Shown here piece by piece: positions 2,963-21,570 of a stretch of 64,000 nt of DNA. The DNA is from Candidatus Omnitrophota bacterium. Its GTDB lineage: Bacteria > Omnitrophota > Omnitrophia > Omnitrophales > Aquincolibacteriaceae. The notes below the pieces were generated by a model that saw nothing but the letters and a program-made list of their open reading frames with translations, made no database searches and was not told the DNA's origin. Made by a program: the position numbers and the translations under genes. Where the stretch lies: the NCBI GenBank assembly GCA_043732705.1, contig JAYTHE010000043.1, positions 9,067-73,066 of the forward strand. The letters run 5' to 3'. Each line of letters begins with the position of its first letter. Within the stretch, counting starts at the first letter, position 1.

Positions 2963-3043
2963 GTGAAAAATAAATTGTTACTACATAAATATGTGGCTGC
3001 GCTTCTCATCGTGTGTCTACTTGTGCAAGACGCTGCATTTGCA
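2963..3043 (+). other. predicted signal peptide of the giant protein (cleavage after AFA)
   Basis: The sequence MKNKLLLHKYVAALLIVCLLVQDAAFA-HG has a basic n-region, a hydrophobic core and an AxA site. Confidence 0.6.
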
Positions 3044-6000
3044 CATGGCGGGCCACGAACTACGAGTCACGAGCCACGAAAAAAAACGTGGTCCGTGGAA
3101 CGTGGAGCGAATTTATTTAATATTTCATCTCAGCTTGGATCTATCGAGGAATCTTTCGAAGGCACCAACGGCAAAAAAATTATTTTCATTCAAGATGCGC
3201 ATGACTCGCTTGAGGCGCAGGAAAATATCACAAGGCTCGTCACGCGTTTTGTTAAGCAAGGCGTGCAAACAGTTTTTGAAGAAGGCTATGCGGGACCGGT
3301 TCCTACCGACGCTTATTTTGGCGATATCAAAGACTCAAAGATTAAACACAAGGTAAGTTTTTACTATCTGGATCACTTAAAGCTTGGCGGAGCTGAATAC
3401 GCGCATATTAACCGGCGAAGCCGGTTGGCCGGAGACCCGAGGCCCGAGGCCCGAGAGCATAAAGCAGCGAATGCTGACTGGCAGTTAATTGGAGCGGATG
3501 ATTTGCCGGCCTATCTTGAAAATGTGCGGGCTTTCGCGGATTCGGAGAAAACACGCGAAGAAATCGAAGAAAATCTGCGGGCAATATTCCGAGAGCTTGC
3601 AAATATAGCCAAAGCGAAGTTTTCAAGATCCGCACAAAGCTGGATCCGCGACCGGCTGCGTTATGAAAACAACCGTCTGACGGTTTCGGATTATATCCAG
3701 CGAACATTGGCGCCTTTTGATTTGAATGATCAGCGCAAATGGCCGCTGCTTTTTGCCGTTCAAGCAACAAGCGCTCAAAAGGAAAATGCCGAGGCGCTTT
3801 TAAGGGGTGCGAACCCGCGTGAAATTTTAAACGAGCTCGCCGCGGCGGAAACGAAGCTGGAAGCGCGCTATTTTCAAAGCGCGGAAGAAATACAGCTATG
3901 GCATTTTTTGCGGGCAGCACGAAGGCTGGCCAAGCTTTCGGAGTTACGGCTCAATCCTTCAGACCTGAATCAGCTTAAAACTGAGATGTCCGCCCTTGAT
4001 ACGGAAAAGCTCGCCGCATGGATCGCGAAAGAAAAAAGCTCGCCCGTTGTGCTTTCCAAAAAATGGGAAAGCCAAATTAAATCCGCACTGCGTTTTTATG
4101 AGCTTGCCGCGATTCGCGAGCAAGCCGTTGAGAAAACTTTGTTAGACTGGAGACGAGAGACCGGAGACAAAAGACCAACATCCGAGATGGGAGCGGGGTC
4201 TGTCCCAAGCGAAGCGCGTGGACTGACCCCTATGGTTTCTAGTCACGACCAAAACGGAACGGCCGTTTTGGTATTCGGCGGATTTCACAAAGAGGGAATT
4301 ACCGGCATGCTTCGCAAATATGGATTTTCGTATTGCGTTATCACGCCAAAGATCTCAGAGCCTTCGCTGAAACATCAAAAGCTTTATCGTGAGGCGATGC
4401 TTTCTAAGGGCCTTCGGCCTTCGGCCGCCGGGCTTGCGGCGCATGCCGCGCGCGCTCCCGATCTCTTTTTAACCATTCCGCTGTCCGCTGCCCGCACCGA
4501 AATCCGCGGACTTGCCGAATTTGCTACGCGCTCCGAAATTCGCGCGCTATCTCTCCCCGAATTTTCCTTTCAGGCCGAAAAGCGGCTTGAAGAAATTAAG
4601 CGCTCCGAAGCACGTGCAAGTGAAAAAATGGAAGATTGGATTCATAGCATTGAAAACGAATTGCGCAAGCCGAAGCCCGATTCAGCCGCGCTCGAGAAAA
4701 TAGAGGCGGCGGCGCATGCATGGGTTTTGCAGCTTAAAGGTTTAGACGGAGCAGATGAGCTGTTAAGTGACGAATATTTTGGAGCTGATTATAGAAAAGT
4801 TTCCACCGAAGAGCGCCAATGGATGCGTGTATTTTTAGCGGCGGCGGTGGTTATTTTGGCAATGGATGATCCCGATTTGAAGCAATTGCGGAAGCTGGAT
4901 GATTTAATTGGGCAATTTAATCAAAAATATAATCAAAGCAACTGGGGCTGGGCGCTGGTGCTTTTTATGAAGCTGGCGCTGAACCGGTTTGTGGTGGAAG
5001 GGCCCAAGCTTCGCACTTTGCTTAAATTGTACGGACGCGGCACGCGTCTTCCCGGTGAGTACAAATATAAAATGGCGGCCTTCACTTTACTTTTACTTGG
5101 CATGCATCTCGGGCATGACGCGGATCCGACCGACGGCCCCGATTTAAATCCGTCCAGTAGTTTAGGGCTTGCTGTTGAGACTTTAAAACATCCCGAAGTG
5201 TTAAATGAAATCCCCGAACCAATGCGCGAGGGAATTTTGGAAGCGTTGCGTGTTGGCTTGACGCATTACGTGGTTTCATCTTGGTTTTGGTGGAAAATAG
5301 GCGCACCCAAACTTAAAAAACAGCTTATTCAAAATCGTGATTTAATCCGAAGTGTGTTGGCTGAAATGAAAAGCCGTTCCGCGCAGCCGGCCGCGATTTT
5401 CGTTTTTGGACGGAAACGATGGATGAATAGGCGTTTTTTTGAAAGTGATTTAAGAAAACAACGGCCTGTCGCAGCATGGGATGAGATTTTGCTTCATCCG
5501 TTTAAGGCGGAGAATTGGAGCCCGTTTCTTCTTTTTGTTCAAGCAAGAACGTCATTTGGTTTACCTGCGCCGAACGAGACAAAGCAGCACGCAACGGACG
5601 CCGCTTATGCTCGAATTATGGATCAACTTGAGTCCTTATCAGATGAACCGGAACAACGCTCCGAAGCACGGGCACGTGAAAAACAGCCGTCGATTTTCTC
5701 AATTTTTCATCCTTGGCATGCGTGGTATTCGCTTGCATGGACAGTTGCCACAGGCAAGTGGATGTTTTATTTAGATGGTCTTCGAAAGGAGCTTGCGAAA
5801 AACAAATATGCCGCACCTGATTGGCTGGGATGGGTTCCAGACATTGCGATTACAGCTTTTGCGCTTAACTTTCTTGTTTTTTTTCTTACCGGGTTATTTG
5901 TTACAAAAGGAACAGAGCTTCGAAATGACCATCAGGAAAAAGTCGCGCTCTGTTTTGTGTTCGGAGCATTTATGTTCGTGGTTTTGGGAGAGTTTTTAAT

Positions 6001-9000
6001 TCCGCCGCCGTTAAATTATTTTGACTGGAAAGATATCGGCGCCTATTCAATTGGACTTGCTATGGCGATTACTGTTCGAGACATTGGACTGGCAAGGCTT
6101 GCGAAGAAGATCTTTTTTAAAGAAACAAAAAGTACGCGCTCCGAAATGCGGGAAGAAAAAAATGACCCACTACGAGCTGGGGAAGTTCTCCAGAAAATAT
6201 TTCGTGAAGGGACATGGCAGCCTCAAGAACTCGGAATGCTTTTCCCTGATCTCGATGATTCAGAAAAATTTCGTTTGCCCGCATTTATTTTTGAGGCGCA
6301 ACTATTCATCAAAACTCAAAACGCAAATCTCTGGGAATATCTTTCGCGTTTGCTCGTGGTTTACGTTGGTCCGGCTGGCCCCTGGCTTTATCTTTACGAC
6401 GCTGCAACCCTTTCGGTGGACCTTTTTATAATGAGCGGTGTTTTTCTCGTACTTGCCTGGAGAAGCTTCAGTCAAATCGCTTCGCTTGCGCAAACGCGCA
6501 TTCTTTTCCTCAAAGCGTTCAAGAGCGCGCATGACGCCATTATAAAAGAGCGGCAAGTCACAGCTGATTTAACTGATACAGGGGATTCGAGCGGACGCTC
6601 AGAGTTTCGGATGCCGCAGGAGCAAGGCCTTGCGAATTTAACGTTGGCGATTAATGTCATGGATTTGGGCGCGGAGATTCAGCCGGACGGGAAAATAATT
6701 TATAAAAACAGTTTTGAAAAACTGAAACAGCTGCTGCCAGTTTTGCAAGGCATGGGTATTCGAAAAATTTATCTCTATGGGCTGGCGGAAGTAAGTGAAA
6801 TTTCAAAAAAGATTCATACGGTTCCGGACGAAGGCTTGCATTTTATTTCGGGCGGTAAAGCAACTGTGATGGTTGAGACTTACACTGTGCGTCGCGAAGA
6901 AGCCGGAGAAAATGAAAAAATAAAATTAGATGATGCGCACGGCAATATTTTTTCAATTGCCGACTTGCGGAAAATAAACCCACAGTACGCGAGTAGTCCC
7001 AGTCGCGCTGAAAAAGAATTTAAAAGCCTAACAAGACTCGCGCATTCGTTGGATATCAAAATAACCGCGGATTTTATTTCTTGGCTTGCGCCCGATGCGA
7101 TCAATGAAAAGAATTATCGCCAAACATTTTATTACGAACTCTCCGAGGTGAAAAACCAGGAATTCCGTGATCAGCCGGATGAGGCAAAAAAACAAGCGTG
7201 GATTAATCAAGAGCTAGGAAGAAAAGAAGACGGCAAATTGGTTCACGGATCTTTTTTTGCGCTCCGCATTACAGAAAACGGGGCTGAGCGTGTGATCATG
7301 GTTAAACATTTGACTCCGTGGGGGGCAAATGCCGATCAAGTCATCCCTAATCCTTTTCACCCCGATTTAAAGACTTATTACAAAAATGCGCTCGAGAGAT
7401 TAATTGACCGCGGAGTGGATGAAGTGCGCGTGGATATCGGCCATATGCTGCTCAAACAAAATATGCGTGGATATTTCGAAGAATTGCGCTCCAAAGGCAT
7501 GAATCTTGAAGATTGGCTGAAGGCGAACAGCTTCGGCCTTCGCAAAAATGAAAAATTTGAAAGCTGGTTTGACCGGCAAGGCGATATGTGGCATGAGGTG
7601 GTTGATCATGCCAAGACTTATGCTATTGGTCATGGAAAGCGCATTCGTTTTACGATGGAAACGTATAGTCCGGGAGAGAAGCAAACACTTTTTGCGCAAG
7701 GTGTTAATGCAAGCTACAACAAATCCATTTTAGATACGTACGGAGAAATTGCGAAGGGGGATTTGCGCGCGTACAAGTTTGATGATCCCGTGAAACATGT
7801 TTTTCACGATCGCCCTTGGGCTCTTTCTTTTTTAACCAACTTTGACCAGCTCTCGTTGGCCAAGTTTGGCGGCCCATCCCAAGCCGGATTTATGTTGCTT
7901 GTTGCTCTTTCCCATTTGGGCGTTCCGTCTATGATCGACTTGCGGGATCTGATGCTGCATCACGGCCAAATCGCTAAAATTGTAGGGGGAACCTGGGACG
8001 CGAATGACTCGCATCATCATGCTTTTGCCGGCGAAAGCGATTTTAAAATGTATGGCGGCACTGAGGCTTTAATCTCCGAGGTTGGAAATGCCGCTCTCGG
8101 AAAAGTTCTCAAAGATTTCCAAAACATTCACCCCGGAAAAAAAGAACGCTATTTTGATATTTTGAACAATGAAAAACGCGAACGTTATTTTAGCTTGGGC
8201 TGGCTGAATGAAGATGGCGATTGGGTCATTGTCTTGTTGGATTTTTGGGCGCATGACGACAGATTGGGAGAAAAGAAAGAATTCGTCAAAGTAGGAATGC
8301 CCCCGAGCACTCCGGAAACCCATTTTAAATATCAAGATTATGATGCGGTTGATTCGGAAGGGAGAAGTCTCGCGTGGGGGCGATGGTTGGGAGAAGGCGG
8401 CGATCCGGAAGTCGTTTCCGTTCATTTTGACGAAGCCGAAAAAATGGCGCCTTATAAAATTATTAAGCTTAAACGAAAAAAAGAAGCGCCGCATTTGCCT
8501 GCGCCCGCAGCGGTTGAATTAACCCGCGAAACCATGCTTAGGCATCCTTTTCCGGAAGCGCGTTTGCGCGAGTTGGAAAAAATTCTCAGCGAGTCGGCTT
8601 ACGCGGACTTGCGCGAAGATGCGATTTTCTTCGCGCTGATGGATGAAGATTTTTTTGTGCGCGCCTATGCCGCGAATATTCTTGCGGACAAGGTAACAAA
8701 TTATAAATATGAATCGCAGCCCGAAGCCTGGATCAAACATTTTATAAATCCGCTTATGTCACTTGACGCGTTAAATGAAAAACGCATTCCCGGTCTGCTT
8801 CATTTTGACCCGCGCCGCGCCGCGCGCAATAAGCGCAATGCGCTGCTCTATGCTTTTGCCCGGCTGAGAGAAAAAAATGGAAGTGACCGGCCGGTATATC
8901 GCCGTACAGTTACCGCGCTTTTTCAAAACACACTCGAAACGCAGGCGCGCGAGTGGCAGTCGGAAAATGAATCCAAGGTTACCAAAATCTTAGCGGAGGA

Positions 9001-12000
9001 AGGCCTTAAAATGGGGGTTGGAACGGCTGAGCCGCTTAATTTAGCGGAATTGCTGCGCCTTATTTATCTGCGGCATTTACAAAAACTCAAAGTTTTGGAA
9101 AAAAATGAGAAGGACAAATTTCATTGGGTGACTACCGCTTTACAGAAAATGGTTCCCCCCAAGTCCGCGGCGGGCAAAGTTATTTTTTCTCCCGCCCGCT
9201 CCGAAATGCGCACGTTGCGCGAACAAATTTTAGAAAATGATTTTCTGAGAGAAAAATTTACCGATGAGCAGCTTGTTCTTTCTAAGCCTTTGTCTGATCA
9301 TAAAAATCATGGGCAAATTTATCCGGGAAGAAAACAAGCTGATGGAAGCCAGTTATTTATTAAAATTAACCCGCATGCGCCAGGCGATGACCAATATGAC
9401 AGTGCCAATAAGCATCTTTTGAGAGAAGCCAAGACGCTTGTTGAGTTAAACCAAAAAGGAGTCGCAGGAATTCCTAAGCTGATCCAAATCGGCATAACGG
9501 CAGGCGGACAGATTTGGCTTCGCATGGCAGGCATTCCTGATGCCCAGATGTTTATTACTGACGCCTGGGACAGTCTCGACATAGAAGACCAACTTGAACT
9601 TTTAGCACAAATGGCAGATATCATTGCAAGTGTCCACGTGCAAGGATTTTTGCATATGGATTTGAAGCCCAAAAACTTTCTATTTGCTCGGGGAAGCACC
9701 GGCAAACCACAGGCAATGTTGATTGATTTTGGATCAGCCGCAAAATTAGGTGAATATATTCGCCATCACGGGTCGGAGCTATTTGCTCCGCCCGAAATCA
9801 ATGAGTTTACGCCCGCCAAAACCCCTTTTGATGTTTTTAGTTTTGGAAGAACGTTAGAGTCTGTTTTTGGAATTTTTGCAAAACAGCACCTAACGGAATA
9901 TTTTAAAAAGAACGCGACAGAAAAAAATTTTTCTTACTTAGAAAAGTATGGGCTAGGTCTTTTAATTGAAGGCATGGTTTTAAAAGAGCCGAGCAAGCGC
10001 CTGCCAAAAACTTTTTTCGAAGTCGCGTTGATTTTGCGTGATATTCGCGGGCGTCTTTTGAATGAAAAGCCTTTGCCTTTCTGGTTTCGTAAAAAAATCG
10101 AAATCGATCAATGGCTAAAAGGTAAAGGGTATCGCGATTTTGACCGTGTCATTGCGTATCCGTTTGCGATTTCGCGCTCTGAAATGCGAACGCAAAATAA
10201 AAAAGACGAAGCCGTGCGACGCAGTGCGATATTGCGTGCGTTTAAAGAAGGTAAAATGGACGGCAGACAATGGCCTTCCGAAGCGCGATTAATTCTGGAT
10301 CTTTTTTTGCGAGGACGTTTTTCCGGGCGCGTCGCCAAAGAAATATTGGAAAAATTTTCGACTCGGACTCCGCGTCCCGAAGGCTTAACAACGCTTTTGC
10401 TTTCCGCCCAAGTTGCGTTAGAAAAAAATTTAGATGCAAAGTGGATTCCGGTGCTCGTGGCGATAAATCATTTTCCACGCAGCGGGAAAGACGTCCGGGC
10501 GCGGATAAAAGAGTACGAAAAAAATATTTATCCGAAAGCGGCACCTAAAAAGCTCAAAGAAGCCGCGGAAACGGTTTATGACCGGAGCCGGGCTCCAGAA
10601 TCAATTGCTGAAAAGGGCTTGATCGCCGGATTGAGCCATTCCACGGAAGGCTTGCATGCTGTTTTGGCGTTCGATGAAACAATGCGGCAACTCAGCGGGG
10701 AACCCAGACCGGCGATGGTAGATGTTCTCTTGGGCCTCGACCAACTAAAAAGCCGTCGGGGCGGATTGAGCGAAGAAGTCAAATTCCTTTCCGGCTGGCT
10801 GCTATTACCAAAAAATGAAATGCGGCAGCGGCTTGTACTTTGGAAAACGGCCGAGATGATGGAGGTCACAGGGCTTGAATATTTGTTGATCGATGATTTT
10901 TTACGGCGCGGCGCGAAGTCACAGCAAATCAAAGCTTATGTCTATTTATTCCAGGCGGTGACACCGGCAGCGGATGAAAGCCAAGCGCATGCGTATCGTG
11001 CGTGGATTACGGGCGTTTTGCATGAGGTTTCCACCGTCTACCATGATCGTTTCGCCAAACATTTTAAATTTAGAGAAACTACGGCAGCAACCTGGCCGGA
11101 AGCCGCGCGGAAAAAAATGCAGCGCGCCGCCGCTTATCTTTGGAATGAAATTGAAAGCCTGCCGCCGCTGCCGCCCAATGGGGAGTATCGACAGCAAATT
11201 GAGGATTTAAAACAGCTTTTAATTCTTGCGGCCAATCTGGGAGCCTCAAGCTATGTTTGGAGGATGATCGACGCGCTTTCGCCTTGGAAGCACTTTTCGG
11301 TTTTATCTGCTTTTGCCTATATGTTTGATGATGATGGTCTTCTGGATAAGGCTACCGCAAGGAAAGCAGTGCATGATTTTTTTGATGGATATGGCAAGCG
11401 CCGCGCTGAACAAGCGGATGCGTTTTTGGACCGCGTTAAAAAGTTAGATGTTTTGCAGGGCGGGTCGGTAAAAAGCATCGCGAACTATTTTAAGAAAAAC
11501 GATTCGCCTTTATTGGATGAAGGCGAAACGCGGCGCTGGCTGGAACTTATCAAGTTATTGTACGAAGGAGAAGGAAGTCTGTCGAAACAAAAAACTCCCG
11601 CGCGGTGGAAAGCAAAAGCGACAAAATTCACGCATGAAGTTACTCAAAAATTTAAAATAGATATGGCCCCCTATTATTCCGGACTGAGCGGTGTGATTAA
11701 ATACACCATTTATGAAGATGGAGAGCGCTTGGCGCTTACGATTAAAATAAAATTGCCGAACCATCCGGGACGCCCGCTCGTCCTGTTAATGGCTGCTAAC
11801 ACCGAAGTCATGTTTAATGAATGGTCCTTGCTGGCCGCGCTTTATCTTGATTTACAGAATAACCGGCGGCCGGACGCATTTGACGGCGATGATGGCGATT
11901 CTTTCGCCCGCTCCGAAATGCGGAAGGAAATGTATGGTCTTTCGCGTGAAGAAATTTCCCGCATTTTGGCTTCGCATAACCCGGCTGGAATTAAAAAAGT

Positions 12001-15000
12001 TGTGGATGACATGGAAATGGCGGTTCGTCAGCTCTCAGCTTTGGGTGCGCACCCGGCTGCGCGCGCATGGATAAAATATTTGCGCATGATGCGTGAAGGT
12101 AAAATCAATGCGGGCCATATTTTTATGCTAAAGCAGTCAGAATTATCGGAAAATGCTTTCCGACCGTTTGCGTCGAATTTCTGGAAAATAAAACTGCTGG
12201 ACGCTTTTTTTAATCAGCATCCGATTTTCTTTCCCCCTTTTCTTGGTGGAGCACAGCGCTTAATTGGGATTGCTGACTTTTGGCCCGGCCTTTTGCCAGC
12301 AGAAATGGGCGTGGAAGCGGCCAAAGAATTAAATGGCTTTATAGTTTGGTATTTATTTGAGCTTCATGACGGCCAGGCAATTCAATGGCCGGTCAATTTC
12401 CCTCTGCGGGAAATAATTCTGCAGTCTTATCTCCGGTTTTTGTCGGGGCTTTCGGGAGAAGTTATGCAAAACTTTACTCAAGAGCTGAACGAAGCTGAAT
12501 TCAGAGCGATCGTGACGCAAGCTTTGGGCGGTCTTATTGCCAGTCTCCAAGACATTGCCAAAGCGATAAAAACTGATTTGGACGAAAAGCAAAAACTGAC
12601 CGATTTGGATCGCGGAAAATTTGTGGAGTTGCTTGAAAGCGGCCACTATGGAAGCGCGCTTGCCCTGCTCCGCCAAAACGAGGCCCTTTGGAAATATTAT
12701 TTTAAATGGATGCGGCGGCTTGATTACGGCTATATGAATGCCCTGCGGTTGATGCAGCAGCTTTTGCGGGCAGGATGGGGCGAAGAGGAATATGTCCGCG
12801 AAACTGAAAGTTATTTGCATAAGTTTATTCATCTGATTGAGCCGCGCTTGATTCGCAGAATGCTGGCGCGCAATATTCTTTTTCAATTCGCGTTGTATCA
12901 ATCCATTCGCTTTAAGCTGTGGTTTGATGATGGTGTGGGCGGATATGGGGAGATTTATAATGACAACTTGCAGTTTCAATATAATTTCCTGCACTCGAGA
13001 GAAAAGACGATTCAAAAAATTATGACCCGCAAGGCTCTTAAAGAGCTGGAAGACATTGCCGCGCGTACTGCGAAGGGCCGCTATCTTCGGCTTGTTCAAG
13101 AGCTTATCCGAGCGAGATTTCTACAGCGCTCTGAAATGCGGGAACCGTTAAAAGCGTGGGTTGAGCAAGCGCTGGATGAACGGGCCGTTGTCGACCCCTC
13201 GAAAAGAGCGGAACTTTTGCGTATCTTTTCGATTATGGCCGCTGATTATGAAGAGGCAGTGCTTGATAAAAAATTTGGAATGGCACCAACAACAGTCGAA
13301 AGTTATTTACATGCTTTTGTGAAAGAAGCGCTCGGAAACCTTGATGCGGATGCGAAATGGATTGAAAAGCTTGCGCAGGGCGCACGGCTCATTTTAAAAA
13401 AGAAACTTTATCCGCATGGCTTTGTCGCCTATCCGCTGCCGGCAATTTTATCAGCTTTGCGGGAACTTAAAAAGCAGCCCGCGGAAGCGGATGCGTGGTT
13501 TCAAGCGGTTGATGAGACCCTGGCAATAAATCCAAGAATTAATCCGCAGGAAATTTTAGATGCCGCGATTGCCGCGGCAGGCGATATGGCTATATTCAAA
13601 CGCGAACTGCAAATGGTTCGTTCCGAAGCGCGAGAAATCAAATTAATTTTGCAGGGCTTCCGGCAAAACACGGAAGTTAGGGTGCTGTTCAAGCCGGAAG
13701 ATTCGGGCGATGTAAAAGCGATTCTGATCAAAGCAGGATTTGGACGTGAAAAGAAAGGCGCGCTGCGCTTGGCCGATATCGGCGAAGTTTTATTAGACGG
13801 GATTAATTTAGGAAAATTTTGGGACACAGCAGGAATTTTAAGAAACTCACAAAATATTATTGTGCGCCACAAAGATTACGAAGAGCCCCAGAAGTCCAAA
13901 CCTGTTTCAAGCGAATCTCCAAAAACAATTTTGGCGGCGGTAAAAACAGAGCAAAAAGGCCTGAGAATTTTTGCGAAGCCTTCATCGCGTCGACCAGAAA
14001 AAATAACATTTTCCTTGAAGCTTCCGCTGGATGATTTGATGACGCAGCGTTTGGAAAATTATGCCGAATGGTTCGCAACGCCAGAAGCGGAGCGTGCCGA
14101 GAAACCGCGCAACCAATTAAAATTCATTTCACTGGTAAAAGAAATAAAAACCGAGACTATTCGGATTGACGAACTTGCCACCGCTGCGGCAGAGGAAGAA
14201 AAGGGGCTGGAGGATGAACCGGGCAAGGAAACCAGCTATGTTGGATCAAATGCCAATGTTAGTGCGAAGGAAAAAGCGAAGCCCGTTGTTAAAGAATACC
14301 GGACTTTTGAAATTACATGGAATGCTCGCGAGGCAGGGGATGTTGATACCTTAAAAGGCATTCTCTATCAATTGGGTTATCAAAGCTCAATAATTCGGCT
14401 TCGATACCATTTGAATTTCGAAGTAAAGCCTGTCGCGGACACATTTGATCCGATCAATAACGGTGATGTCTTAACGGCTGTTTTGAATTCTGCCCGCAAC
14501 CGCGATGATGATCGTGAAGGTGATTTGGCTTTGGAGTCTTACACGCAGGAAATGCTTGCGAAACTAAAAATCAAAACCCCTGAAGAGCTGGCCGCTTTAC
14601 GCGCCGAGCGTGAAGAGGAGCTGATAGGCAAAATCGGCCTTAAGAGCGCTGAGATGGAAGCTTTTATTTCAGGAGATTTTCAGCCAGATAATCGGAATGC
14701 GAGTCTTTTGCACGAAGTTTGGAAAAAATATTTAGATGAGGGCATGCGCACCGCAATAATTACTTATTTTGGCTTGCAAGGAAATATCCCGGCGACCAAC
14801 AAAATTCATTTGGCCGCAGAGCTTAAAATGACAGCAACCGAATCCATCGGCAAACTAAGTATGGCAGCAGCTTATTTAAAAAATGCTTACCAGGATGGCA
14901 AATTGCCAAAAGCAAAGCCTGTCCCCAAAATAGTTGCGGTGAATCGGGAAGATGAAAAAAGCATTGTGCCACCGGAAAGTCCGATAACCACAAAAGAAGC

Positions 15001-18000
15001 GAAAGATATCAAGCCCGCGCCTGAAGTTCTTGCTCCGGCCGACCAAGTTTCTGTGTCGGAAGCCCTGACAGCTGTGCTAGAAACTAAACCTGCAGCCGAA
15101 GTCCCTGCGTCGGCGGGGGAGCAGGCAGAAGCATCAACGCGAGAACGGGAACCACGGCCCTATCTAACAATGTTTAAAACCGTTTGTCAAAAATTTCAGT
15201 TTCAAGCTTTTTCAAGACAGGAACTCTATGCAGAATTTTCCAATAAATCTAAATCTGTTATTGATGGGAGGCTTCAATCTTTTCTGACAGCGGGGTTAAT
15301 TGAAAAAGTTGAGCAAGTCAAAACTAAGCCCAGGATTTCGAGCTCAGAGAAAGCGTATAAACTAAAAGAATTTAGGGCGGATCAAACGGAGGCGCTTGAA
15401 TTCGCATTGGAAAGTTGGACTGATAAATATGACGAAAAGCTCGCTAAGTCGCTTATTGCGCGAGTGTTTTCTATTCAAAAAAAAGAACACGAAATTCTGC
15501 GCCCCGGAAAACCCAAGGAGGGAGATTTTTCACACACCGAAGGCTTTGTCGCTTTCGTTGAGTGGCTGTGGGAAGAATGGAAGCCATGGATTTCTTTGAA
15601 GCAGCCGGTTAAATTTGCGGCTCTAGGAGCGCGACTCATTAACAGCTCCAAATGGTTGCTTCCGCATCTTATGCAAAGGCTCGAAGCAAGCGGCTTGGCC
15701 GCCATAGTTTCATCTGCGGCGATTGGAATACACAATTGGATCACCATAACAAATTTTTCAGGCTGGAAGAAGGACCGTGTGAAGACAGCTCTTGAAGGAT
15801 ATCGCAAGCATCGCGATTTTCGGCGGCTGGCGGTAGAAATCAAAAATATTTTGATACAGGAAGAGCAGCCGTCCGTTGTGTCGCCACAAATGATTTTACC
15901 CGGATTCAAAGAAGTGTTTTCTCCCGCGCTCAGCGGACAGAAAAGCAAGCAGATGTCATTGCGAAAAGTAATGGAAGCGGCCGAAGTTGTTCGCCAAGAA
16001 AACGGGGATGGTTTTCTTGTAAGCACAAAAACCGTTGCAAAGCAATTGGGCGTTGCGCAAGGAGTGCTTGTCCGATTTGCAAACGATAATTCAATTCGAC
16101 TCAGCCGATTGCATATTTACACAAGGGAACCTGGCCTGAGGGGGCAACGCGAAAAAGTCCTACAAGAAATAAAGGCCGCGGCCGACCGCTTACGGGCGGA
16201 AAACCCACAGCATCAATATATGCCCTTTGCCGAAGAGGATTTAATTTTAGAAATGGGACGTTTTAAATCTATGAGTGGATTTGCATTCGAAATGAATTTT
16301 CTTAAAATTAAAGATCTCGCTTCTTATGGGGTTTTTAAAGCAAACACAAATTCGAATGACCTTCGGGAATGGTTAGATCGATATGCTGAGGTTTTGTTTG
16401 GCAAAAAAATATCAGCTGAGGCCATAAACGAAATTATGACTGTTTGGACTCCTCACAAAAATCACATAGGACAGAGCTGGAAAAAACGAATATCCCCCGA
16501 AACCGAAAAATATCTGGCGGCGCAGCAAAAATGGATACAGGAGAAACTGAAGCGCCGTGATAAGCAGCGCGCTGAATATATTCGCAGTTTAATAGATGAA
16601 GCGGTAAATGAGTATCATCTGGCGCAAAGCCAGCCTGGTTCTCCTCGTTTGAGGAAAGCAAAGTTTCGGCTTCTTGCTCTCGATCCTTTTCATCCCGCGT
16701 TGAGGGGAAAGAAAATTTCGGAAGTGGCGCCCAAAGCACCCAAGCGAGCAGATATGGGAAATAAAACGAAAAAGACAGCACCTATATTCAAACCTAATCC
16801 GATTTATGAAACGCAAGCGAAGCTGGGCGTGATCATTACGAGTCCAGCCGACATCGATTGGGAAAATCCAACGGAAGCATTACCGATTTTCAAGGAAGAC
16901 GAAGAGCTGGCTACGACAACGGAACGCGGGTATTTAAATTTAACTAAAATTCTTCCCGGTGCTTCGCTTGTGATCACCAACTTAGGGATTAAAGGAAAGC
17001 ACAAAGTATTTATTAAAAGCGGCGGCGCTGAAAACAAAAAATACAAGTTGGTGCTCCGCATTGAAGGTGTGAACGAAGAAAAAGCATTCTGGATTGGACG
17101 CTACCGGGGAAAGAGTTTGTTTGGTGTCGCTCTCGGTAAAAATCTGGACAAAGAAACTTTTGAGCTTTTAACTTTGGAAGAATGGAATGCGCGTTTTTTT
17201 GCTGAGCTTTTAACAAAGCCCGACGAGCTTTCATGGAGCCAAGCCATCGAGCCAAGCGGAAAATTTGAGGGTGTTGATCTTGGAGCGCTTAATAATTCCG
17301 GATACGGCAAAGTTTGGCTGGAGAAAAGTGTTGAGGCCGAAATTAAAATTGGCGGCAGACGGGGATATTCAGGCTATACTCCAAGACTTGTTTCGATTAC
17401 CGAACAAGACCAGCTATTAAAACTAGGAATTTTACTTACCAGCCCCGACAAAACAAAATCCGAAACCGTAGATCTGTATTTATCAGATTTGAAAGCAACG
17501 GCCCAGGGCAGTGGTTTAAAGGCGGCCACGACTGTTACCTATCGGAAACCTTCCGCGCGAGAAGAAGCTGTCGTTAATGAAATAAAGTCTGGTGAAACAA
17601 AAACCAAGCCACGCTCCGAAATGCGAGAAATCCAAAAAAATAATCCAGCGATTATGATTTGGCCAATGCAAAAAGTCGGAACAGTTTTAATTTCACGCGC
17701 CGAATTGCGGAATCTTCCCGAAGAAAATTTTCTGGCGCTTTATAAAACCGCCTACACACGTTCCGAGCTGCGTTTTTTAGTTTATGGCGAGGATTCATTA
17801 ACTGACTCCGAAGACCCCCGCGCTCAGATGCTCACCACGATTCCCAACGGGAGGGTACGCGTCAACTTTATCGGTGGTAACGAACCCAAAGCTTTGATGC
17901 GGGTTCCGGTTTCTGAACGAGCGGTGATCATAACGGGAAGAAGCGAGGCTCGCTTTTTAACTCTGCGCAAAGGAGTTTCGCGAGTAGCGGCTCAAGGCCA

Positions 18001-18148
18001 AGCCGCAATGTTGGCCTTAGGGCTTTTGTGGACAGTGAGCGATACTCCACTTAGTCAGAAGAATGGTTTTTTAAGCGATCCTTCCGGGCGTTTTACTGAA
18101 ATGACTCGAGCCTTTTTGTCCCAGCTTGTTTTTGCCTCAGCCGCTTAA
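2963..18148 (+). CDS. giant multidomain membrane-anchored protein (5061 aa) containing a Ser/Thr protein-kinase domain and recurrent RSE[MA]R motifs
   Basis: There is no stop codon for 15,186 nt. The start is GTG 2963, with in-frame alternatives TTG 2975 and GTG 2993. It lies downstream of a 290-bp AT-rich leader. A signal peptide, TM cluster, GH13-like motifs and kinase motifs are present. Codon usage matches the neighbouring genes. A perfect 15-bp hairpin follows the TAA stop. Confidence 0.85.
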   Translation: MKNKLLLHKYVAALLIVCLLVQDAAFAHGGPRTTSHEPRKKTWSVERGANLFNISSQLGSIEESFEGTNGKKIIFIQDAHDSLEAQENITRLVTRFVKQGVQTVFEEGYAGPVPTDAYFGDIKDSKIKHKVSFYYLDHLKLGGAEYAHINRRSRLAGDPRPEAREHKAANADWQLIGADDLPAYLENVRAFADSEKTREEIEENLRAIFRELANIAKAKFSRSAQSWIRDRLRYENNRLTVSDYIQRTLAPFDLNDQRKWPLLFAVQATSAQKENAEALLRGANPREILNELAAAETKLEARYFQSAEEIQLWHFLRAARRLAKLSELRLNPSDLNQLKTEMSALDTEKLAAWIAKEKSSPVVLSKKWESQIKSALRFYELAAIREQAVEKTLLDWRRETGDKRPTSEMGAGSVPSEARGLTPMVSSHDQNGTAVLVFGGFHKEGITGMLRKYGFSYCVITPKISEPSLKHQKLYREAMLSKGLRPSAAGLAAHAARAPDLFLTIPLSAARTEIRGLAEFATRSEIRALSLPEFSFQAEKRLEEIKRSEARASEKMEDWIHSIENELRKPKPDSAALEKIEAAAHAWVLQLKGLDGADELLSDEYFGADYRKVSTEERQWMRVFLAAAVVILAMDDPDLKQLRKLDDLIGQFNQKYNQSNWGWALVLFMKLALNRFVVEGPKLRTLLKLYGRGTRLPGEYKYKMAAFTLLLLGMHLGHDADPTDGPDLNPSSSLGLAVETLKHPEVLNEIPEPMREGILEALRVGLTHYVVSSWFWWKIGAPKLKKQLIQNRDLIRSVLAEMKSRSAQPAAIFVFGRKRWMNRRFFESDLRKQRPVAAWDEILLHPFKAENWSPFLLFVQARTSFGLPAPNETKQHATDAAYARIMDQLESLSDEPEQRSEARAREKQPSIFSIFHPWHAWYSLAWTVATGKWMFYLDGLRKELAKNKYAAPDWLGWVPDIAITAFALNFLVFFLTGLFVTKGTELRNDHQEKVALCFVFGAFMFVVLGEFLIPPPLNYFDWKDIGAYSIGLAMAITVRDIGLARLAKKIFFKETKSTRSEMREEKNDPLRAGEVLQKIFREGTWQPQELGMLFPDLDDSEKFRLPAFIFEAQLFIKTQNANLWEYLSRLLVVYVGPAGPWLYLYDAATLSVDLFIMSGVFLVLAWRSFSQIASLAQTRILFLKAFKSAHDAIIKERQVTADLTDTGDSSGRSEFRMPQEQGLANLTLAINVMDLGAEIQPDGKIIYKNSFEKLKQLLPVLQGMGIRKIYLYGLAEVSEISKKIHTVPDEGLHFISGGKATVMVETYTVRREEAGENEKIKLDDAHGNIFSIADLRKINPQYASSPSRAEKEFKSLTRLAHSLDIKITADFISWLAPDAINEKNYRQTFYYELSEVKNQEFRDQPDEAKKQAWINQELGRKEDGKLVHGSFFALRITENGAERVIMVKHLTPWGANADQVIPNPFHPDLKTYYKNALERLIDRGVDEVRVDIGHMLLKQNMRGYFEELRSKGMNLEDWLKANSFGLRKNEKFESWFDRQGDMWHEVVDHAKTYAIGHGKRIRFTMETYSPGEKQTLFAQGVNASYNKSILDTYGEIAKGDLRAYKFDDPVKHVFHDRPWALSFLTNFDQLSLAKFGGPSQAGFMLLVALSHLGVPSMIDLRDLMLHHGQIAKIVGGTWDANDSHHHAFAGESDFKMYGGTEALISEVGNAALGKVLKDFQNIHPGKKERYFDILNNEKRERYFSLGWLNEDGDWVIVLLDFWAHDDRLGEKKEFVKVGMPPSTPETHFKYQDYDAVDSEGRSLAWGRWLGEGGDPEVVSVHFDEAEKMAPYKIIKLKRKKEAPHLPAPAAVELTRETMLRHPFPEARLRELEKILSESAYADLREDAIFFALMDEDFFVRAYAANILADKVTNYKYESQPEAWIKHFINPLMSLDALNEKRIPGLLHFDPRRAARNKRNALLYAFARLREKNGSDRPVYRRTVTALFQNTLETQAREWQSENESKVTKILAEEGLKMGVGTAEPLNLAELLRLIYLRHLQKLKVLEKNEKDKFHWVTTALQKMVPPKSAAGKVIFSPARSEMRTLREQILENDFLREKFTDEQLVLSKPLSDHKNHGQIYPGRKQADGSQLFIKINPHAPGDDQYDSANKHLLREAKTLVELNQKGVAGIPKLIQIGITAGGQIWLRMAGIPDAQMFITDAWDSLDIEDQLELLAQMADIIASVHVQGFLHMDLKPKNFLFARGSTGKPQAMLIDFGSAAKLGEYIRHHGSELFAPPEINEFTPAKTPFDVFSFGRTLESVFGIFAKQHLTEYFKKNATEKNFSYLEKYGLGLLIEGMVLKEPSKRLPKTFFEVALILRDIRGRLLNEKPLPFWFRKKIEIDQWLKGKGYRDFDRVIAYPFAISRSEMRTQNKKDEAVRRSAILRAFKEGKMDGRQWPSEARLILDLFLRGRFSGRVAKEILEKFSTRTPRPEGLTTLLLSAQVALEKNLDAKWIPVLVAINHFPRSGKDVRARIKEYEKNIYPKAAPKKLKEAAETVYDRSRAPESIAEKGLIAGLSHSTEGLHAVLAFDETMRQLSGEPRPAMVDVLLGLDQLKSRRGGLSEEVKFLSGWLLLPKNEMRQRLVLWKTAEMMEVTGLEYLLIDDFLRRGAKSQQIKAYVYLFQAVTPAADESQAHAYRAWITGVLHEVSTVYHDRFAKHFKFRETTAATWPEAARKKMQRAAAYLWNEIESLPPLPPNGEYRQQIEDLKQLLILAANLGASSYVWRMIDALSPWKHFSVLSAFAYMFDDDGLLDKATARKAVHDFFDGYGKRRAEQADAFLDRVKKLDVLQGGSVKSIANYFKKNDSPLLDEGETRRWLELIKLLYEGEGSLSKQKTPARWKAKATKFTHEVTQKFKIDMAPYYSGLSGVIKYTIYEDGERLALTIKIKLPNHPGRPLVLLMAANTEVMFNEWSLLAALYLDLQNNRRPDAFDGDDGDSFARSEMRKEMYGLSREEISRILASHNPAGIKKVVDDMEMAVRQLSALGAHPAARAWIKYLRMMREGKINAGHIFMLKQSELSENAFRPFASNFWKIKLLDAFFNQHPIFFPPFLGGAQRLIGIADFWPGLLPAEMGVEAAKELNGFIVWYLFELHDGQAIQWPVNFPLREIILQSYLRFLSGLSGEVMQNFTQELNEAEFRAIVTQALGGLIASLQDIAKAIKTDLDEKQKLTDLDRGKFVELLESGHYGSALALLRQNEALWKYYFKWMRRLDYGYMNALRLMQQLLRAGWGEEEYVRETESYLHKFIHLIEPRLIRRMLARNILFQFALYQSIRFKLWFDDGVGGYGEIYNDNLQFQYNFLHSREKTIQKIMTRKALKELEDIAARTAKGRYLRLVQELIRARFLQRSEMREPLKAWVEQALDERAVVDPSKRAELLRIFSIMAADYEEAVLDKKFGMAPTTVESYLHAFVKEALGNLDADAKWIEKLAQGARLILKKKLYPHGFVAYPLPAILSALRELKKQPAEADAWFQAVDETLAINPRINPQEILDAAIAAAGDMAIFKRELQMVRSEAREIKLILQGFRQNTEVRVLFKPEDSGDVKAILIKAGFGREKKGALRLADIGEVLLDGINLGKFWDTAGILRNSQNIIVRHKDYEEPQKSKPVSSESPKTILAAVKTEQKGLRIFAKPSSRRPEKITFSLKLPLDDLMTQRLENYAEWFATPEAERAEKPRNQLKFISLVKEIKTETIRIDELATAAAEEEKGLEDEPGKETSYVGSNANVSAKEKAKPVVKEYRTFEITWNAREAGDVDTLKGILYQLGYQSSIIRLRYHLNFEVKPVADTFDPINNGDVLTAVLNSARNRDDDREGDLALESYTQEMLAKLKIKTPEELAALRAEREEELIGKIGLKSAEMEAFISGDFQPDNRNASLLHEVWKKYLDEGMRTAIITYFGLQGNIPATNKIHLAAELKMTATESIGKLSMAAAYLKNAYQDGKLPKAKPVPKIVAVNREDEKSIVPPESPITTKEAKDIKPAPEVLAPADQVSVSEALTAVLETKPAAEVPASAGEQAEASTREREPRPYLTMFKTVCQKFQFQAFSRQELYAEFSNKSKSVIDGRLQSFLTAGLIEKVEQVKTKPRISSSEKAYKLKEFRADQTEALEFALESWTDKYDEKLAKSLIARVFSIQKKEHEILRPGKPKEGDFSHTEGFVAFVEWLWEEWKPWISLKQPVKFAALGARLINSSKWLLPHLMQRLEASGLAAIVSSAAIGIHNWITITNFSGWKKDRVKTALEGYRKHRDFRRLAVEIKNILIQEEQPSVVSPQMILPGFKEVFSPALSGQKSKQMSLRKVMEAAEVVRQENGDGFLVSTKTVAKQLGVAQGVLVRFANDNSIRLSRLHIYTREPGLRGQREKVLQEIKAAADRLRAENPQHQYMPFAEEDLILEMGRFKSMSGFAFEMNFLKIKDLASYGVFKANTNSNDLREWLDRYAEVLFGKKISAEAINEIMTVWTPHKNHIGQSWKKRISPETEKYLAAQQKWIQEKLKRRDKQRAEYIRSLIDEAVNEYHLAQSQPGSPRLRKAKFRLLALDPFHPALRGKKISEVAPKAPKRADMGNKTKKTAPIFKPNPIYETQAKLGVIITSPADIDWENPTEALPIFKEDEELATTTERGYLNLTKILPGASLVITNLGIKGKHKVFIKSGGAENKKYKLVLRIEGVNEEKAFWIGRYRGKSLFGVALGKNLDKETFELLTLEEWNARFFAELLTKPDELSWSQAIEPSGKFEGVDLGALNNSGYGKVWLEKSVEAEIKIGGRRGYSGYTPRLVSITEQDQLLKLGILLTSPDKTKSETVDLYLSDLKATAQGSGLKAATTVTYRKPSAREEAVVNEIKSGETKTKPRSEMREIQKNNPAIMIWPMQKVGTVLISRAELRNLPEENFLALYKTAYTRSELRFLVYGEDSLTDSEDPRAQMLTTIPNGRVRVNFIGGNEPKALMRVPVSERAVIITGRSEARFLTLRKGVSRVAAQGQAAMLALGLLWTVSDTPLSQKNGFLSDPSGRFTEMTRAFLSQLVFASAA
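4819..6465 (+). other. transmembrane helix cluster of the giant protein (at least 4 strong TM segments)
   Basis: Hydrophobic stretches are IAITAFALNFLVFFLTGLFV, VALCFVFGAFMFVVLGEFLI, IGAYSIGLAMAITV, LLVVYVGPAGPWLYLY and LFIMSGVFLVLAW. There are also weaker ones such as VFLAAAVVILAM. Confidence 0.6.
6930..7990 (+). other. alpha-amylase superfamily (GH13/GH-H clan)-like TIM-barrel segment
   Basis: The pattern FSIADLRKINPQY..EFKSLTRLAHSLDIKITADFI resembles Y.xDY.IDP.YGT.EFK.LV.AH..GIKVILD. GVDEVRVDIGHML resembles GVDGFRxDxxxH (region II; R, D and H present). FTMETY carries a Glu. FLTNFDQ resembles FVxNHD (His replaced by Phe). Confidence 0.4.
8560..8700 (+). other. HEAT/PBS-lyase-like repeat
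   Basis: The sequence LRELEKILSESAYADLREDAIFFALMDEDFFVRAYAANILADK fits the HEAT-repeat pattern. Confidence 0.4.
9281..10060 (+). other. eukaryotic-like Ser/Thr protein kinase catalytic domain inside the giant protein
   Basis: There is a Gly-rich stretch HGQIYPGRK, a LFIKI (VAIK-like) Lys, a catalytic loop HMDLKPKNFLF, LIDFGSA (DFG) and ELFAPPE (APE). Confidence 0.8.
14905..15165 (+). other. low-complexity P/E/K/A-rich linker
   Basis: The sequence KLPKAKPVPKIVAV...PESPITTKEAKDIKPAPEVLAPADQVS...KPAAEVPASAGEQAEAS is low-complexity. Confidence 0.5.
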
Positions 18149-18259: not shown

Positions 18260-18326
18260 GCGCGCTCTTCTATAGATCATTTCTCGGGTCTCGGGCCTCC
18301 GGCCCTGGGCCTTGCCGGAGGCAAAA

Positions 18327-19424
18327 ATGGGTTTTAAATGCGGAATTGTAGGGCTGCCGAATGTGGGCAAGTCCACGATTTTCAATGCGATTAATAAAGA
18401 GTCACGTGCACAGGCGGCAAATTATCCGTTTTGCACGATTGAACCGAACAAGGGCATTGTTCCTGTTCCCGATCATCGCCTTGAAACTCTTACCAAGCTG
18501 ATCAAGCCGCAATCCAAAGTTCCGACCACGGTTGAATTTTATGATATCGCGGGCCTTGTGAAAGGCGCGGCCGAAGGCGAAGGCCTGGGCAATAAATTCT
18601 TAACGCATATCCGTGAAGTCGAAGCCATCATGCATGTGGTGCGCTGTTTTGAAGACCCGAATATTTTGCATGTTTCGGGCAGCGTGAATCCCGCGCGCGA
18701 CATTGAAGTGATCGATACCGAACTTTGTTTAAAAGATCTCGAAACCATCGGCACGCGTTTTACAAAAAATGACAAGCTTGCGCGCTCAGGTGACAAAGAA
18801 GCGCTTGCGGTTCAGCCGACCTTAGAAAAAATTAAAAAAGCGCTCGAAGCCGGAACACCGCTTCGCAAACTTGAGCTTACCGCCGAAGAACAGCTCGCCG
18901 TCAAAGAATGCAGCTTTCTAACTTTAAAGCCCATTTTTTATTGCGCGAATGTGGCCGAGAGTGATTTGCCAAAGGGCGGGCCGCTTGTTGAAGAGGTTCG
19001 CAAAATTGCCGCGGCCGAAGGCGCGAAGGTCGTTGTGATTTCCGGAAAAGTAGAATCCGAAATTATTGAATTGTCCGAAGCCGAACAAAAAGATTTTTTG
19101 GAAAGCTTGGGATTGGAAGAACCCGGCATGCATAAGCTCATCCGCTGCGGATATGAAACCTTGAACTTAATCACTTATCTTACGGCCGGCGAAAAAGAAG
19201 TTCGCGCGTGGACCATTATCAGAGGCATGACCGCGCCCCAAGCGGCCGGCGTAATTCACAGTGATTTTGAACGTGGATTTATACGCGCTGAAGTCATGAG
19301 CTATGAAGACTTGGTTGCCTGCGGCTCGGAAAAAGCCGTCAAAGAGAAAGGTCTTTTGCGCGTCGAAGGTAAGGAATATATAGTGAAAGACGGCGACGTG
19401 ATGTTGTTTCGGTTCAGTGTTTAG
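18327..19424 (+). CDS. ychF: ribosome-binding ATPase YchF (Obg-family GTPase)
   Basis: The protein begins [21 protein letters not shown] and ends with a TGS domain ([11 protein letters not shown]). A GGAGG RBS lies 6 nt upstream. The ORF track extends to TTG 18312. Confidence 0.9.
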
Positions 19425-20335: not shown

Positions 20336-20821
20336 ATGCCTGAATCGCAGCGGAGTCAAAAAGGTTTTACTTTGGTGGAAATAATGATTGTGGTCGCGAT
20401 TATCGGAATTGTTGTGACCGTTGCTATTCCGGCATTATTGCGCAGCCGCGTAAATGCGAATGAATCCGCCACTAAATCGAATCTGAGAACTTTTTCCAGC
20501 GCCATTGAAGCCTATCGTGCTGCGCAAACCGTTCCGTCCTATCCTGCGGATATCAGCAGCTTAACCGCGGCCACACCGGCCTATTTGGATACCACCTGGG
20601 GCGCGGGCATGACAACCACTAAGAGTGGATATAATTTTACTTATGTTTTTGGCGGCGCAGCTCAATATGCGATTTATGCCGAACCAGTGCAGGCCAATAT
20701 TACGGGCATCAGTTCTCTCTGTGTGGATGAAACAGGAGTTGTTTGGATTTCTGCCTCATCTGCAGGTGCTTTTTCCGGCTCACCCTGTTCGGGCGGTGCC
20801 GGCGCAACCGCGCTTCAATAA
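20336..20821 (+). CDS. prepilin-type N-terminal cleavage/methylation domain protein (type IV pilin-like)
   Basis: The N-terminus is KGFTLVEIMIVVAIIGIV, a class III signal. An AGAGGG RBS is upstream. Confidence 0.8.
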   Translation: MPESQRSQKGFTLVEIMIVVAIIGIVVTVAIPALLRSRVNANESATKSNLRTFSSAIEAYRAAQTVPSYPADISSLTAATPAYLDTTWGAGMTTTKSGYNFTYVFGGAAQYAIYAEPVQANITGISSLCVDETGVVWISASSAGAFSGSPCSGGAGATALQ

Positions 20822-20828
20822 AATAAAA

Positions 20829-21245: not shown

Positions 21246-21296
21246 CCTCTTTTTCTCTGCGAATTATGCCCGAGTTAGGTCATGAAAAAGTAAATG

Positions 21297-21570
21297 GCAC
21301 TGCTCAAACAACGGATGCTGCGCACCGAACTCGCATTTCCAATTACTTTTTCATAACTTTCGCGATAGGGGGGGGTGGGGCTTGGATCAGAGAAACAAGG
21401 TTGAGAAAGCCAAGTCTGTCGAAGATGCCGCTATTCAACCTTGCCACGCCATAGCTCATTCTTAGAAGAAGTTTCCGGCTTTATCTTCCCATGGCTCGGC
21501 CGAGCTGAGCCATGGGAACGTTTTTCCATTTCGGGTTTCCCGAGATGAAAAAAGGTATGACGGGAAACTA
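21297..21570 (+). repeat. family-1 modular intergenic element, copy F
   Basis: The blocks are gctcaaacaacggatgctgcgcaccgaactcg (H2), ggggtggggcttggatcagagaaacaagg (B) and agtttccggctttatcttc plus hairpin CCATGGCTCggccgagctGAGCCATGG (C). Confidence 0.6.

Follow-up and report, generated by a model that had tools for sequence, protein, structure and literature searches.

The R-[S/A]-E-x-R motif marks module junctions in giant Omnitrophota proteins and is a strong candidate for their cutting sites

The window analyzed here, a 64,000-nt stretch of contig JAYTHE010000043.1 from a Candidatus Omnitrophota bacterium, carries at 2963..18148 on the forward strand a single giant open reading frame (ORF) of 5,061 aa, whose product is punctuated by the five-residue motif Arg-Ser-Glu-x-Arg (RSE.R). 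Together with its Ala variant RAE.R, the motif genuinely marks module junctions across a large family of giant proteins in Omnitrophota and is under selection at the level of the protein, and R[S/A]ExR is a strong candidate for the sites at which these proteins are cut. With slightly better than even confidence, R-[S/A]-E-[L/V/M/A]-R is read here as a polyprotein processing site that would be cut after the second Arg. The step from recognition to proteolysis, the scissile bond and the identity of the protease are parts of this reading that we infer from the patterns described below.

The ORF begins with GTG and ends with the stop codon 18146-18148, and its product is 100% identical to a public NCBI protein (P0001) on a 114,924-nt contig. 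It holds 13 copies of RSE.R compared to 0.10 expected from composition. In the remaining five frames of the whole 64 kb, only 2 copies turned up, both out of frame or outside ORFs, against ~2.5 expected in a hand estimate from the composition-based frequency. Chance or low complexity as the source of the motif was ruled out by these RSE.R counts and by those across the family given below. An earlier note on this DNA had described three RSE-x-R copies near the C-terminus, at 17612 (aa 4884), 17759 (aa 4933) and 17939 (aa 4993), followed by a stop at 18148. All three are in frame at these positions, the stop and the three inter-motif peptides quoted are correct, and the second spacing is 60 residues as given, with the first being 49 and not 48. 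The observation is confirmed but too narrow. The tail holds 3 of the 13 copies, and the other ten, at aa 523, 547, 899, 1059, 1212, 2079, 2405, 2983, 3389 and 3553, are spread along the protein, so that the triplet is not special to the C-terminus. The features of the protein, with structures predicted by AlphaFold2 (AF2) and scored by the predicted local distance difference test (pLDDT), are as follows.

2993..3049 (+), N-terminal hydrophobic helix, signal peptide or membrane anchor (aa 11-29; hydropathy peak 1.89, AF2 helix 2-27)
3125..4402 (+), head domain, probably TIKI/ChaN/erythromycin-esterase-like (aa ~55-480; 31 homologues, alignment A1, AF2 pLDDT 75)
4529..4543 (+), RSEIR (aa 523), first junction motif after the head domain (pLDDT <50 at 524-527)
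4601..4615 (+), RSEAR (aa 547; pLDDT <50 at 546-552)
5657..5671 (+), RSEAR (aa 899), starts a 160-aa module with two transmembrane helices (961-979, 995-1013)
6137..6151 (+), RSEMR (aa 1059), starts a 153-aa module with transmembrane helix 1147-1165
6596..6610 (+), RSEFR (aa 1212), starts the 867-aa alpha-amylase-like module (6596-9196), shared with 9 giants
9197..9211 (+), RSEMR (aa 2079), N-terminal boundary of the 326-aa kinase module
9308..9868 (+), Ser/Thr protein kinase domain (aa 2116-2302; PF00069), within segment 2079-2404
10175..10189 (+), RSEMR (aa 2405), C-terminal boundary of the kinase module
11909..11923 (+), RSEMR (aa 2983)
13127..13141 (+), RSEMR (aa 3389)
13619..13633 (+), RSEAR (aa 3553), starts a 1,331-aa stretch without motif or known domain
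17612..17626 (+), RSEMR (aa 4884), tail copy 1, canonical linker junction site (pLDDT <50)
17669..18145 (+), C-terminal module (aa 4903-5061), compact Rossmann-like alpha/beta domain ending ...ASAA
17696..17710 (+), RAELR (aa 4912), variant inside a helix of the C-terminal module, in this protein only
17759..17773 (+), RSELR (aa 4933), tail copy 2, inside the fold at a helix-to-strand junction, followed by Phe
17939..17953 (+), RSEAR (aa 4993), tail copy 3, internal loop between two strands, followed by Phe

Pfam and NCBIfam scans of the whole protein gave kinase-type matches only, namely, the Ser/Thr kinase PF00069 at aa 2116-2302 (E 5.5e-14). Segment 1212-2078 is weakly alpha-amylase-like and common to nine other giant proteins, and transmembrane helices are predicted at aa 961-979, 995-1013 and 1147-1165 besides the hydrophobic N-terminal helix. 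A near-motif ARTEIRG (RTEIR, aa 509-513, window 4487-4501) stands near the close of the head domain and aligns with RSELR and RSEVR of P0020 and P0024.

A database search brought up 31 proteins with the head domain, most of them fragments from contig ends; RSE.R stood right behind the domain in all fragments longer than ~600 aa. One genome per GTDB species was scanned with the head domain as query; 158 loci were confirmed and 80 were kept for counts. The named records among these 80 loci, like all named homologues, were Omnitrophota/Omnitrophica metagenome-assembled genomes (MAGs), with one record labelled Planctomycetales. In the ORFs running on from the head domain at the 80 loci (220,532 aa), RSE.R occurred 399 times against 6.5 expected. 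Its first copy lay 400-650 aa past the head-domain start in 62 of the 80 ORFs and several others had RAE.R there; most loci lacking RSE.R carried RAE.R instead. The fixed positions were near-invariant: each other substitution (K for R, D for E etc.) was seen 4-11 times compared to 399, and Ala was the sole appreciable replacement of Ser (72 RAE.R copies). Residue x was L, V, M or A in 85% of RSE.R copies. The counts in P0007, P0009 and P0010 were 10, 12 and 9 compared to 0.13-0.16 expected. Flanking ordinary ORFs had RSE.R at chance level, with surplus copies only in pieces of other giant ORFs.

The homologues of the 5,061-aa protein are Omnitrophota proteins of 3,479-6,664 aa, and the family ranges from ~1,600 to >6,600 aa. 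Modules in the relatives include GlgA, phosphorylase, UDPGDH, ROK, RelA/SpoT, PALP, DAO, Cmk, hydrolase and receiver domains, and single genomes carry at least five giant-gene paralogues. The closest relative, L004 (JAYSWD010000065.1), has a head domain 52% identical (BLASTP) and no similarity past aa ~580; as judged by this comparison, module content is wholly replaced between these close relatives. Short inter-motif segments of 21, 24, 43 and 51 aa occur elsewhere in the family.

Several arrangements of genes and motifs were seen in the relatives. Giant motif-bearing genes are often adjacent, in tandem in L012 (2-7793), L007 (13354-18526) and L035 (2-2789), and on opposite strands in the neighbouring genes L014 and L061 (contig CAYSSX010000010.1). 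In many family members, the head domain is immediately followed by two or three copies of the motif at intervals of 20-60 aa. In P0009 (L002) the longer unit ERSSGTHPIEA-RSEMR occurs three times (aa 1233-1252, 2061-2080 and 2171-2185), and some P0009 junctions appear from these repeats to have been duplicated together with ~11 extra residues. The L042 ORF has overlapping tandem motif copies at aa 3598-3610, RSELRSEVRSELR, with four-residue spacing.

The motif is placed at module junctions. In the 5,061-aa protein, the kinase domain 2116-2302 falls wholly between motifs 2079 and 2405. Most homologue alignments of the alpha-amylase-like module begin at aa 1223-1227, with P0007 at 1204 and P0004 at 1169, and P0007 has RSEMR at the position aligned with RSEFR 1212. 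The GlgA-like enzyme of P0007 has its GT5 domain starting 12 aa past a motif, and the whole of GT5+GT1 fills the 516-aa segment; in this protein, too, UDP-glucose dehydrogenase begins 16 aa past a motif, and aldose epimerase and the receiver domain each occupy one inter-motif segment. The cytidylate kinase of P0026 begins ~20 aa past a motif, and PALP, alpha/beta-hydrolase, DAO and GT2 domains of other members showed the same bracketing. Within eight giants, none of 93 motifs lay inside a Pfam envelope (P ~5e-5; envelopes cover 10.2%). In an all-against-all BLAST of blocks outside the head domain, 28% of homology-block starts were within -10 to +20 aa of a motif compared to 5% at random, and 23% of block ends compared to 7%. 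Some of the sites are also predicted to be exposed, with AF2 pLDDT <50 at motifs 523, 547 and 4884; sites 4912, 4933 and perhaps 4993 differ from these linker sites in lying inside the C-terminal fold. Hydrophobic residues were depleted and S, P, A, E and D enriched in the motif flanks (391-443 sites).

Residue x differed strongly among genomes (chi-square 506, P 1e-48). It was Leu at 27 of 27 sites in the five paralogues of one MAG and at 35 of 36 sites in the four paralogues of another. A third MAG mostly has Ala at x, and 'Ca. Taenariivivens baikalensis' mostly Val. The all-Leu genomes use all six Leu codons at x, which argues for selection on the amino acid. Paralogue head domains are 42-49% identical and often closer to genes from genomes with a different x, and heads from the same genome are no closer to each other than to genes of Met- or Ala-x genomes. 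Uniform x across such anciently diverged paralogues points to co-evolution with one shared protein-level reader per genome, and it disfavours a passive linker or helix cap. These data show that the motif exists, is enriched and specific and sits at module junctions, that selection acts on its amino acids and that its x is genome-specific. An internal translation start at x was rejected because many x codons are non-start (GCN, ACN, TTT, CTT, CTC, TTA) and there is no Shine-Dalgarno-like sequence upstream. Eight of the 13 motif copies in the 5,061-aa ORF read CGCTCCGAA.

The residue after the second Arg was constrained as well. At the 443 family sites, S, T, A or G occupied +1 in 53% compared to 26% expected (P 7e-33), L, F, W or Y were found 24 times compared to 85 expected, and Phe stood there at 5 sites. 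Pro was found 5 times at +1 compared to 20 expected and 42 times at -1 compared to 20, with no depletion at +2 or +3. The preference for a small residue and the depletion of Pro are read as those of a P1' position, so that the scissile bond would lie after the second Arg.

The tail of the protein behaves as one unit. A HMMER search with aa 4860-5061 placed the last ~160 residues at the C-terminus of P0043, P0045, P0046, P0048 and P0049, of which P0046 has 9 RSELR copies, and an alignment of 30 C-termini found the module in nearly all complete family members, ending in [S/A]-A. In the indexed protein database, a profile search with alignment A2 returned P0049 as the sole tail homologue, and no relative of the tail protein came up when metagenomes were scanned with it. 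The AF2 model of aa 4870-5061 (pLDDT 76.6, predicted template modelling score [pTM] 0.72) has a disordered stretch at 4870-4902 and a compact alpha/beta fold at 4903-5061, with weak Rossmann-like structure matches. The disordered linker holds copy 1 (4884), and R[SA]ExR recurs at this place in roughly half of the relatives, typically 190-215 aa from the C-terminus (P0043, P0046, P0048, L006, L021, L032, L048, L061, L065, L066 and L081). Copy 2 (4933) is at a helix-to-strand junction, partly in a core beta-strand (model residues 64-68, pLDDT ~91). Its column has RSE.R in 4 relatives (P0048, L006, L048 and L066) and many partial matches, with a hydrophobic strand after it. Copy 3 (4993) is in an internal loop (model residues 124-128, block pLDDT 66) and occurs in this protein only, and RAELR 4912 is inside helix 43-48 of the model (pLDDT ~92). 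Copies 2 and 3 are both followed by Phe at +1. The three tail segments are mutually dissimilar and are all pieces of the one fold.

The earlier note had taken the tail for a precursor cut at the three motifs into short peptides. As processing sites, the RSE-x-R copies gained indirect support along the whole protein and across the family, and lost it at tail copies 2 and 3. Conservation of the triplet was followed in homologues of the C-terminal module, since the closest relative L004 shares nothing downstream; the domain proved conserved and copy 1 was kept in about half of them, copy 2 in 4 and copy 3 in none. One conserved compact domain in the tail predicts one product of ~170 aa and not three peptides. 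Release of three bioactive peptides of 44, 55 and 64 aa is hardly credible, even with three exact copies inside 178 aa, the first of them in a disordered linker, and with inter-motif segments of 21-51 aa elsewhere in the family. The conserved C-terminal domain of dozens of relatives, its single predicted fold, the burial of copy 2 and restriction of copy 3 to this protein, the Phe at +1 of both, the dissimilarity of the segments and the lack of adjoining maturation or export genes all speak against it.

Two further observations concern the tail. The last 20 aa (window 18086-18145) and nearly all C-termini of complete ORFs in L006-L081 end in hydrophobic-x-x-[S/A]-A (ASAA, AWAA, ARSA, ISTAA etc.), an ending that may serve as a C-terminal signal or degron, or mark a last site of cutting. 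P0042 (2,513 aa), with repeats of the type IX secretion system (T9SS) type, gave 16 weak stretches against aa 4952-5013 (total E 9e-41, 24% identity), probably the additive weak similarity of beta-rich repeats.

In the explanation we favour, family giants consist of a membrane-anchored TIKI-like head, a Rossmann-like C-terminal domain and highly variable enzyme modules between them, and the motif, which punctuates the 5,061-aa protein 13-14 times, would be read by one sequence-specific protein-level factor per genome. The most likely reader would be an endoprotease that cuts after the second Arg and before a small residue, and cutting would free the kinase, amylase-like, membrane and other modules from the polyprotein. 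In the tail, only 4884 would be cut, freeing the ~170-aa C-terminal domain whole; 4933 and 4993 are buried or atypical, and small peptides are not expected. More broadly, and tentatively, at a little under even confidence, Omnitrophota may express part of their enzyme complement as membrane-anchored polyproteins, as operon equivalents in which a common TIKI-like head and Rossmann-like tail enclose enzyme modules that shuffle freely, with a dedicated, genome-tuned endoprotease cutting R-[S/A]-E-x-R ahead of a small residue.

The head domain itself would be a possible protease. Alignment A1 (20 sequences) showed the invariant residues D78-A79-H80, E106-E107-G108, G143-A144-E145-x-x-H148-x-x-R151 and H442, with G439, G440 and F441 of a GGFH motif (439-442) at least 90% conserved. 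A Foldseek search with the head AF2 model listed 3b55 (Bcr135), EreC and HopBA1 in the top five PDB hits at E ≥0.3; PF04187 ('Tiki superfamily, ChaN') matched one of the 20 head-domain members (8.5e-5), and not the 5,061-aa protein. PDB sequence and profile searches and NCBIfam gave no matches to the head domain. The structures 3b55, EreC and HopBA1 belong to TIKI-superfamily members with a 2His/2Glu catalytic set, among which RRSP and Tiki are sequence-specific endopeptidases (PMC6254334). The His-to-Glu spacing is 26-27 residues in the head domain compared to 28 in Bcr135 and RRSP (PMC6254334), if the presumed correspondence of residues holds. Membership of the TIKI superfamily is a plausible but weak assignment.

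Several results weigh against processing at the motif. Protein-level recognition alone has no explanation for the codon bias, which was counted over the RSE.R sites of the giant ORF and of loci L001-L083 and in which the first Arg is CGY in 81% compared to 42% in non-motif R-S dipeptides, and the motif Ser is TCN in 93% compared to 64% in the control and TCC in 48% compared to 23%; the second Arg uses its codons, AGR included, at the background rate. Many module junctions are without the motif; in P0010, a stretch of 2,850 aa spans three enzymes without a single site. Copies inside the C-terminal fold are not what linker sites alone would lead one to expect: RSE.R was found at the alpha2-beta2 junction in 5 of 30 tails, and in 5 tails R[SA]E.R opens the last helix, 17-22 aa before the C-terminus. 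The TIKI assignment is weak on the Foldseek values and the one Pfam match in 20, and the covariation test gave only the motif's own column, with no head-domain column covarying with the genome's x. If periplasmic, the head domain would be unable to reach cytoplasmic junctions. The dedicated protease that the earlier note had proposed to look for did not turn up, as Pfam found no protease domain in the 5,061-aa protein and no protease gene adjoins the giant gene; the TIKI-like head is a candidate only.

These points bear on what reads the motif and on whether it is cut at all. A narrower version of the processing reading, doubtful in our view, makes the head domain (aa 55-480) the protease, a TIKI-superfamily endopeptidase that would process the giants in cis or in trans. 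It is consistent with the co-occurrence of head domain and motif (62 of 80 ORFs), with the invariant D-x-H, E-E and H spaced like the TIKI 2His/2Glu set, with the three TIKI structures among the five top hits and the PF04187 match, and with the sequence-specific endopeptidases of the superfamily. The fold matches are, however, individually not significant and have no counterpart in PDB or NCBIfam sequence matches, no head-domain columns covary with x, the head may be periplasmic with most junctions cytoplasmic, and anciently diverged paralogous heads would all have to converge on the same x. Alternatively, the motif may be recognized and not cut, as a docking or modification site (Arg or Ser modification) or as a scaffold or assembly tag for a genome-specific partner, with the chain staying intact. 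We hold this to be unlikely, if credible: strict residues, a genome-specific x and linker placement fit binding equally, the copies at two fixed spots in the folded C-terminal module resemble a structural or binding element, no protease was identified in the protein or the adjoining genes, and the 5,061-aa protein includes a kinase module. As a general function, phosphorylation of the Ser by that kinase was rejected, since the Ala variant is common (72 RAE.R copies) and most relatives are without a kinase. Docking, moreover, does not predict a +1 residue that is small and avoids Pro and bulky N-degron-type residues, as is typical of P1', and the enzymes between motifs are complete, their native-like N-termini beginning 7-20 aa after the motif.

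An element at the nucleotide level (CGY TCC GAR NTG CGG, 15 nt), either an in-frame recombination joint for shuffling modules among the giant genes or an mRNA processing site, is very improbable. It would suit the motif-specific synonymous bias of the first Arg and the Ser, the very fast module turnover in which the closest relative shares the head domain only, and the homology blocks ending at motifs. Third codon positions and the x codon vary freely, however, up to six Leu codons, AGR is no more or less frequent at the second Arg than in the background, the copies all share one reading frame and one coding strand, and hardly any 15-mers are identical within a genome. Conservation tracks the amino acid, R and not K, E and not D.

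The processing reading has parallels in known systems. Viral polyproteins carry a short strict junction motif, with a site preference co-evolving with the genome's own protease; flavivirus NS2B-NS3 sites are dibasic, followed by a small residue, and picornavirus 3C sites are Q followed by G. The Omnitrophota giants are similar in their recurrent, strict and genome-tuned junction motif with a small residue after it, and differ in belonging to a cellular organism with many paralogous giants per genome and shuffling modules. In Porphyromonas gingivalis, RgpA, Kgp and HagA are multi-domain precursors cut at Arg or Lys by Arg- and Lys-specific proteases. These virulence factors are secreted, have a recognisable C25 protease domain and are cut at sites that are only loosely defined; in the giant protein no such domain was found, and its site is a five-residue motif. 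Prohormone and neuropeptide precursors likewise have basic residues at putative cut sites and several sites per chain; in the giants, the inter-site units are whole folded enzymes of 150-1,300 aa and the tail segments are one domain.

Among bacterial giants, MARTX toxins are proteins of 3,500-5,300 aa whose effector modules are freed by an internal protease cutting the inter-module linkers, and one MARTX effector, RRSP, is a TIKI-family endopeptidase (PMC6254334). Both are large bacterial chains of discrete modules, and linker sites and cleavage in the Omnitrophota protein are the presumed part of the likeness. Unlike the toxins, the giant protein carries metabolic and regulatory enzymes and a strict Arg-Ser-Glu-x-Arg motif, and since Pfam and NCBIfam scans of it found no RTX repeats and no cysteine protease domain (Peptidase_C80), MARTX membership is excluded. 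In the same phylum, the 'multi-enzyme metabolic cluster' class (bioRxiv 10.64898/2026.06.07.730766) has one ORF tiling unrelated enzymes, among them those of sugar metabolism, kinases and receivers, and the Archaeovorin/Dockerin-type giants (bioRxiv 10.1101/2023.11.21.568195) are Omnitrophota proteins as well. The 5,061-aa protein, which tiles kinase, alpha-amylase-like and membrane modules like the multi-enzyme giants, shares with the published Omnitrophota giants a putative N-terminal signal peptide, transmembrane helices and extreme between-genome uniqueness. It is below the thresholds of the two surveys, ≥10 kAA (thousand amino acids; 10.64898/2026.06.07.730766) and >30 kAA (10.1101/2023.11.21.568195). 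Term searches of both preprints found no junction motif, conserved head or tail domain, or cleavage sites, and literature searches for motif strings and Omnitrophota polyproteins returned nothing relevant; the R[S/A]ExR junction motif appears undescribed in the literature searched.

Whether one chain or many products result is an explicitly open question for giant bacterial proteins, and West-Roberts et al. and the 2024 huge-protein survey named the unknown cleavage motifs or points of such giants as an obstacle. With a strict, phylum-wide and genome-tuned junction motif, the cleavage question can be put to direct tests. From the motif, the ends of the products can be predicted exactly in hundreds of proteins, peptides can be designed as substrates in the hunt for the protease, and giant ORFs can be divided by rule into units for modelling and annotation. 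If the processing reading is true, the motif would be the missing cleavage map for giant bacterial proteins, by which their true products could be delimited computationally, and cleavage, if confirmed, would be a cellular counterpart of viral polyprotein expression serving ordinary metabolism.

The neighbours of the giant gene are a radical-SAM fragment, a beta-propeller-like ORF, YchF, a hexapeptide transferase, a pilin-like protein and cytochrome c biogenesis genes, with no maturation or export genes adjoining. The YchF GTPase gene adjoins the giant gene downstream in the window (18312-19424, +) and upstream in the P0010 locus L003 (6356-7450). The only other peptidases in the window are an M17 aminopeptidase and a secreted trypsin-like enzyme, neither linked to the motif. 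The M17 leucyl aminopeptidase is encoded near the giant gene both in the window (30563-32077, +) and in the P0009 locus L002 (19404-20915) and, being an exopeptidase, could trim new N-termini. The 247-aa secreted trypsin-like serine peptidase (Trypsin_2, GDSGSP; 45876-46619, -), ~28 kb from the end of the giant gene, has Lys six residues before the catalytic Ser by a rough count and is a candidate reader only. Window regions 20336-29738 and 53175-62842 hold housekeeping genes, with the pilin-like protein, ResB, CcsA, CtaA, a UbiA-family prenyltransferase and SCO1, and a tricarboxylic acid (TCA) cycle cluster of isocitrate and malate dehydrogenase, aconitase, citrate synthase and succinyl-CoA ligase.

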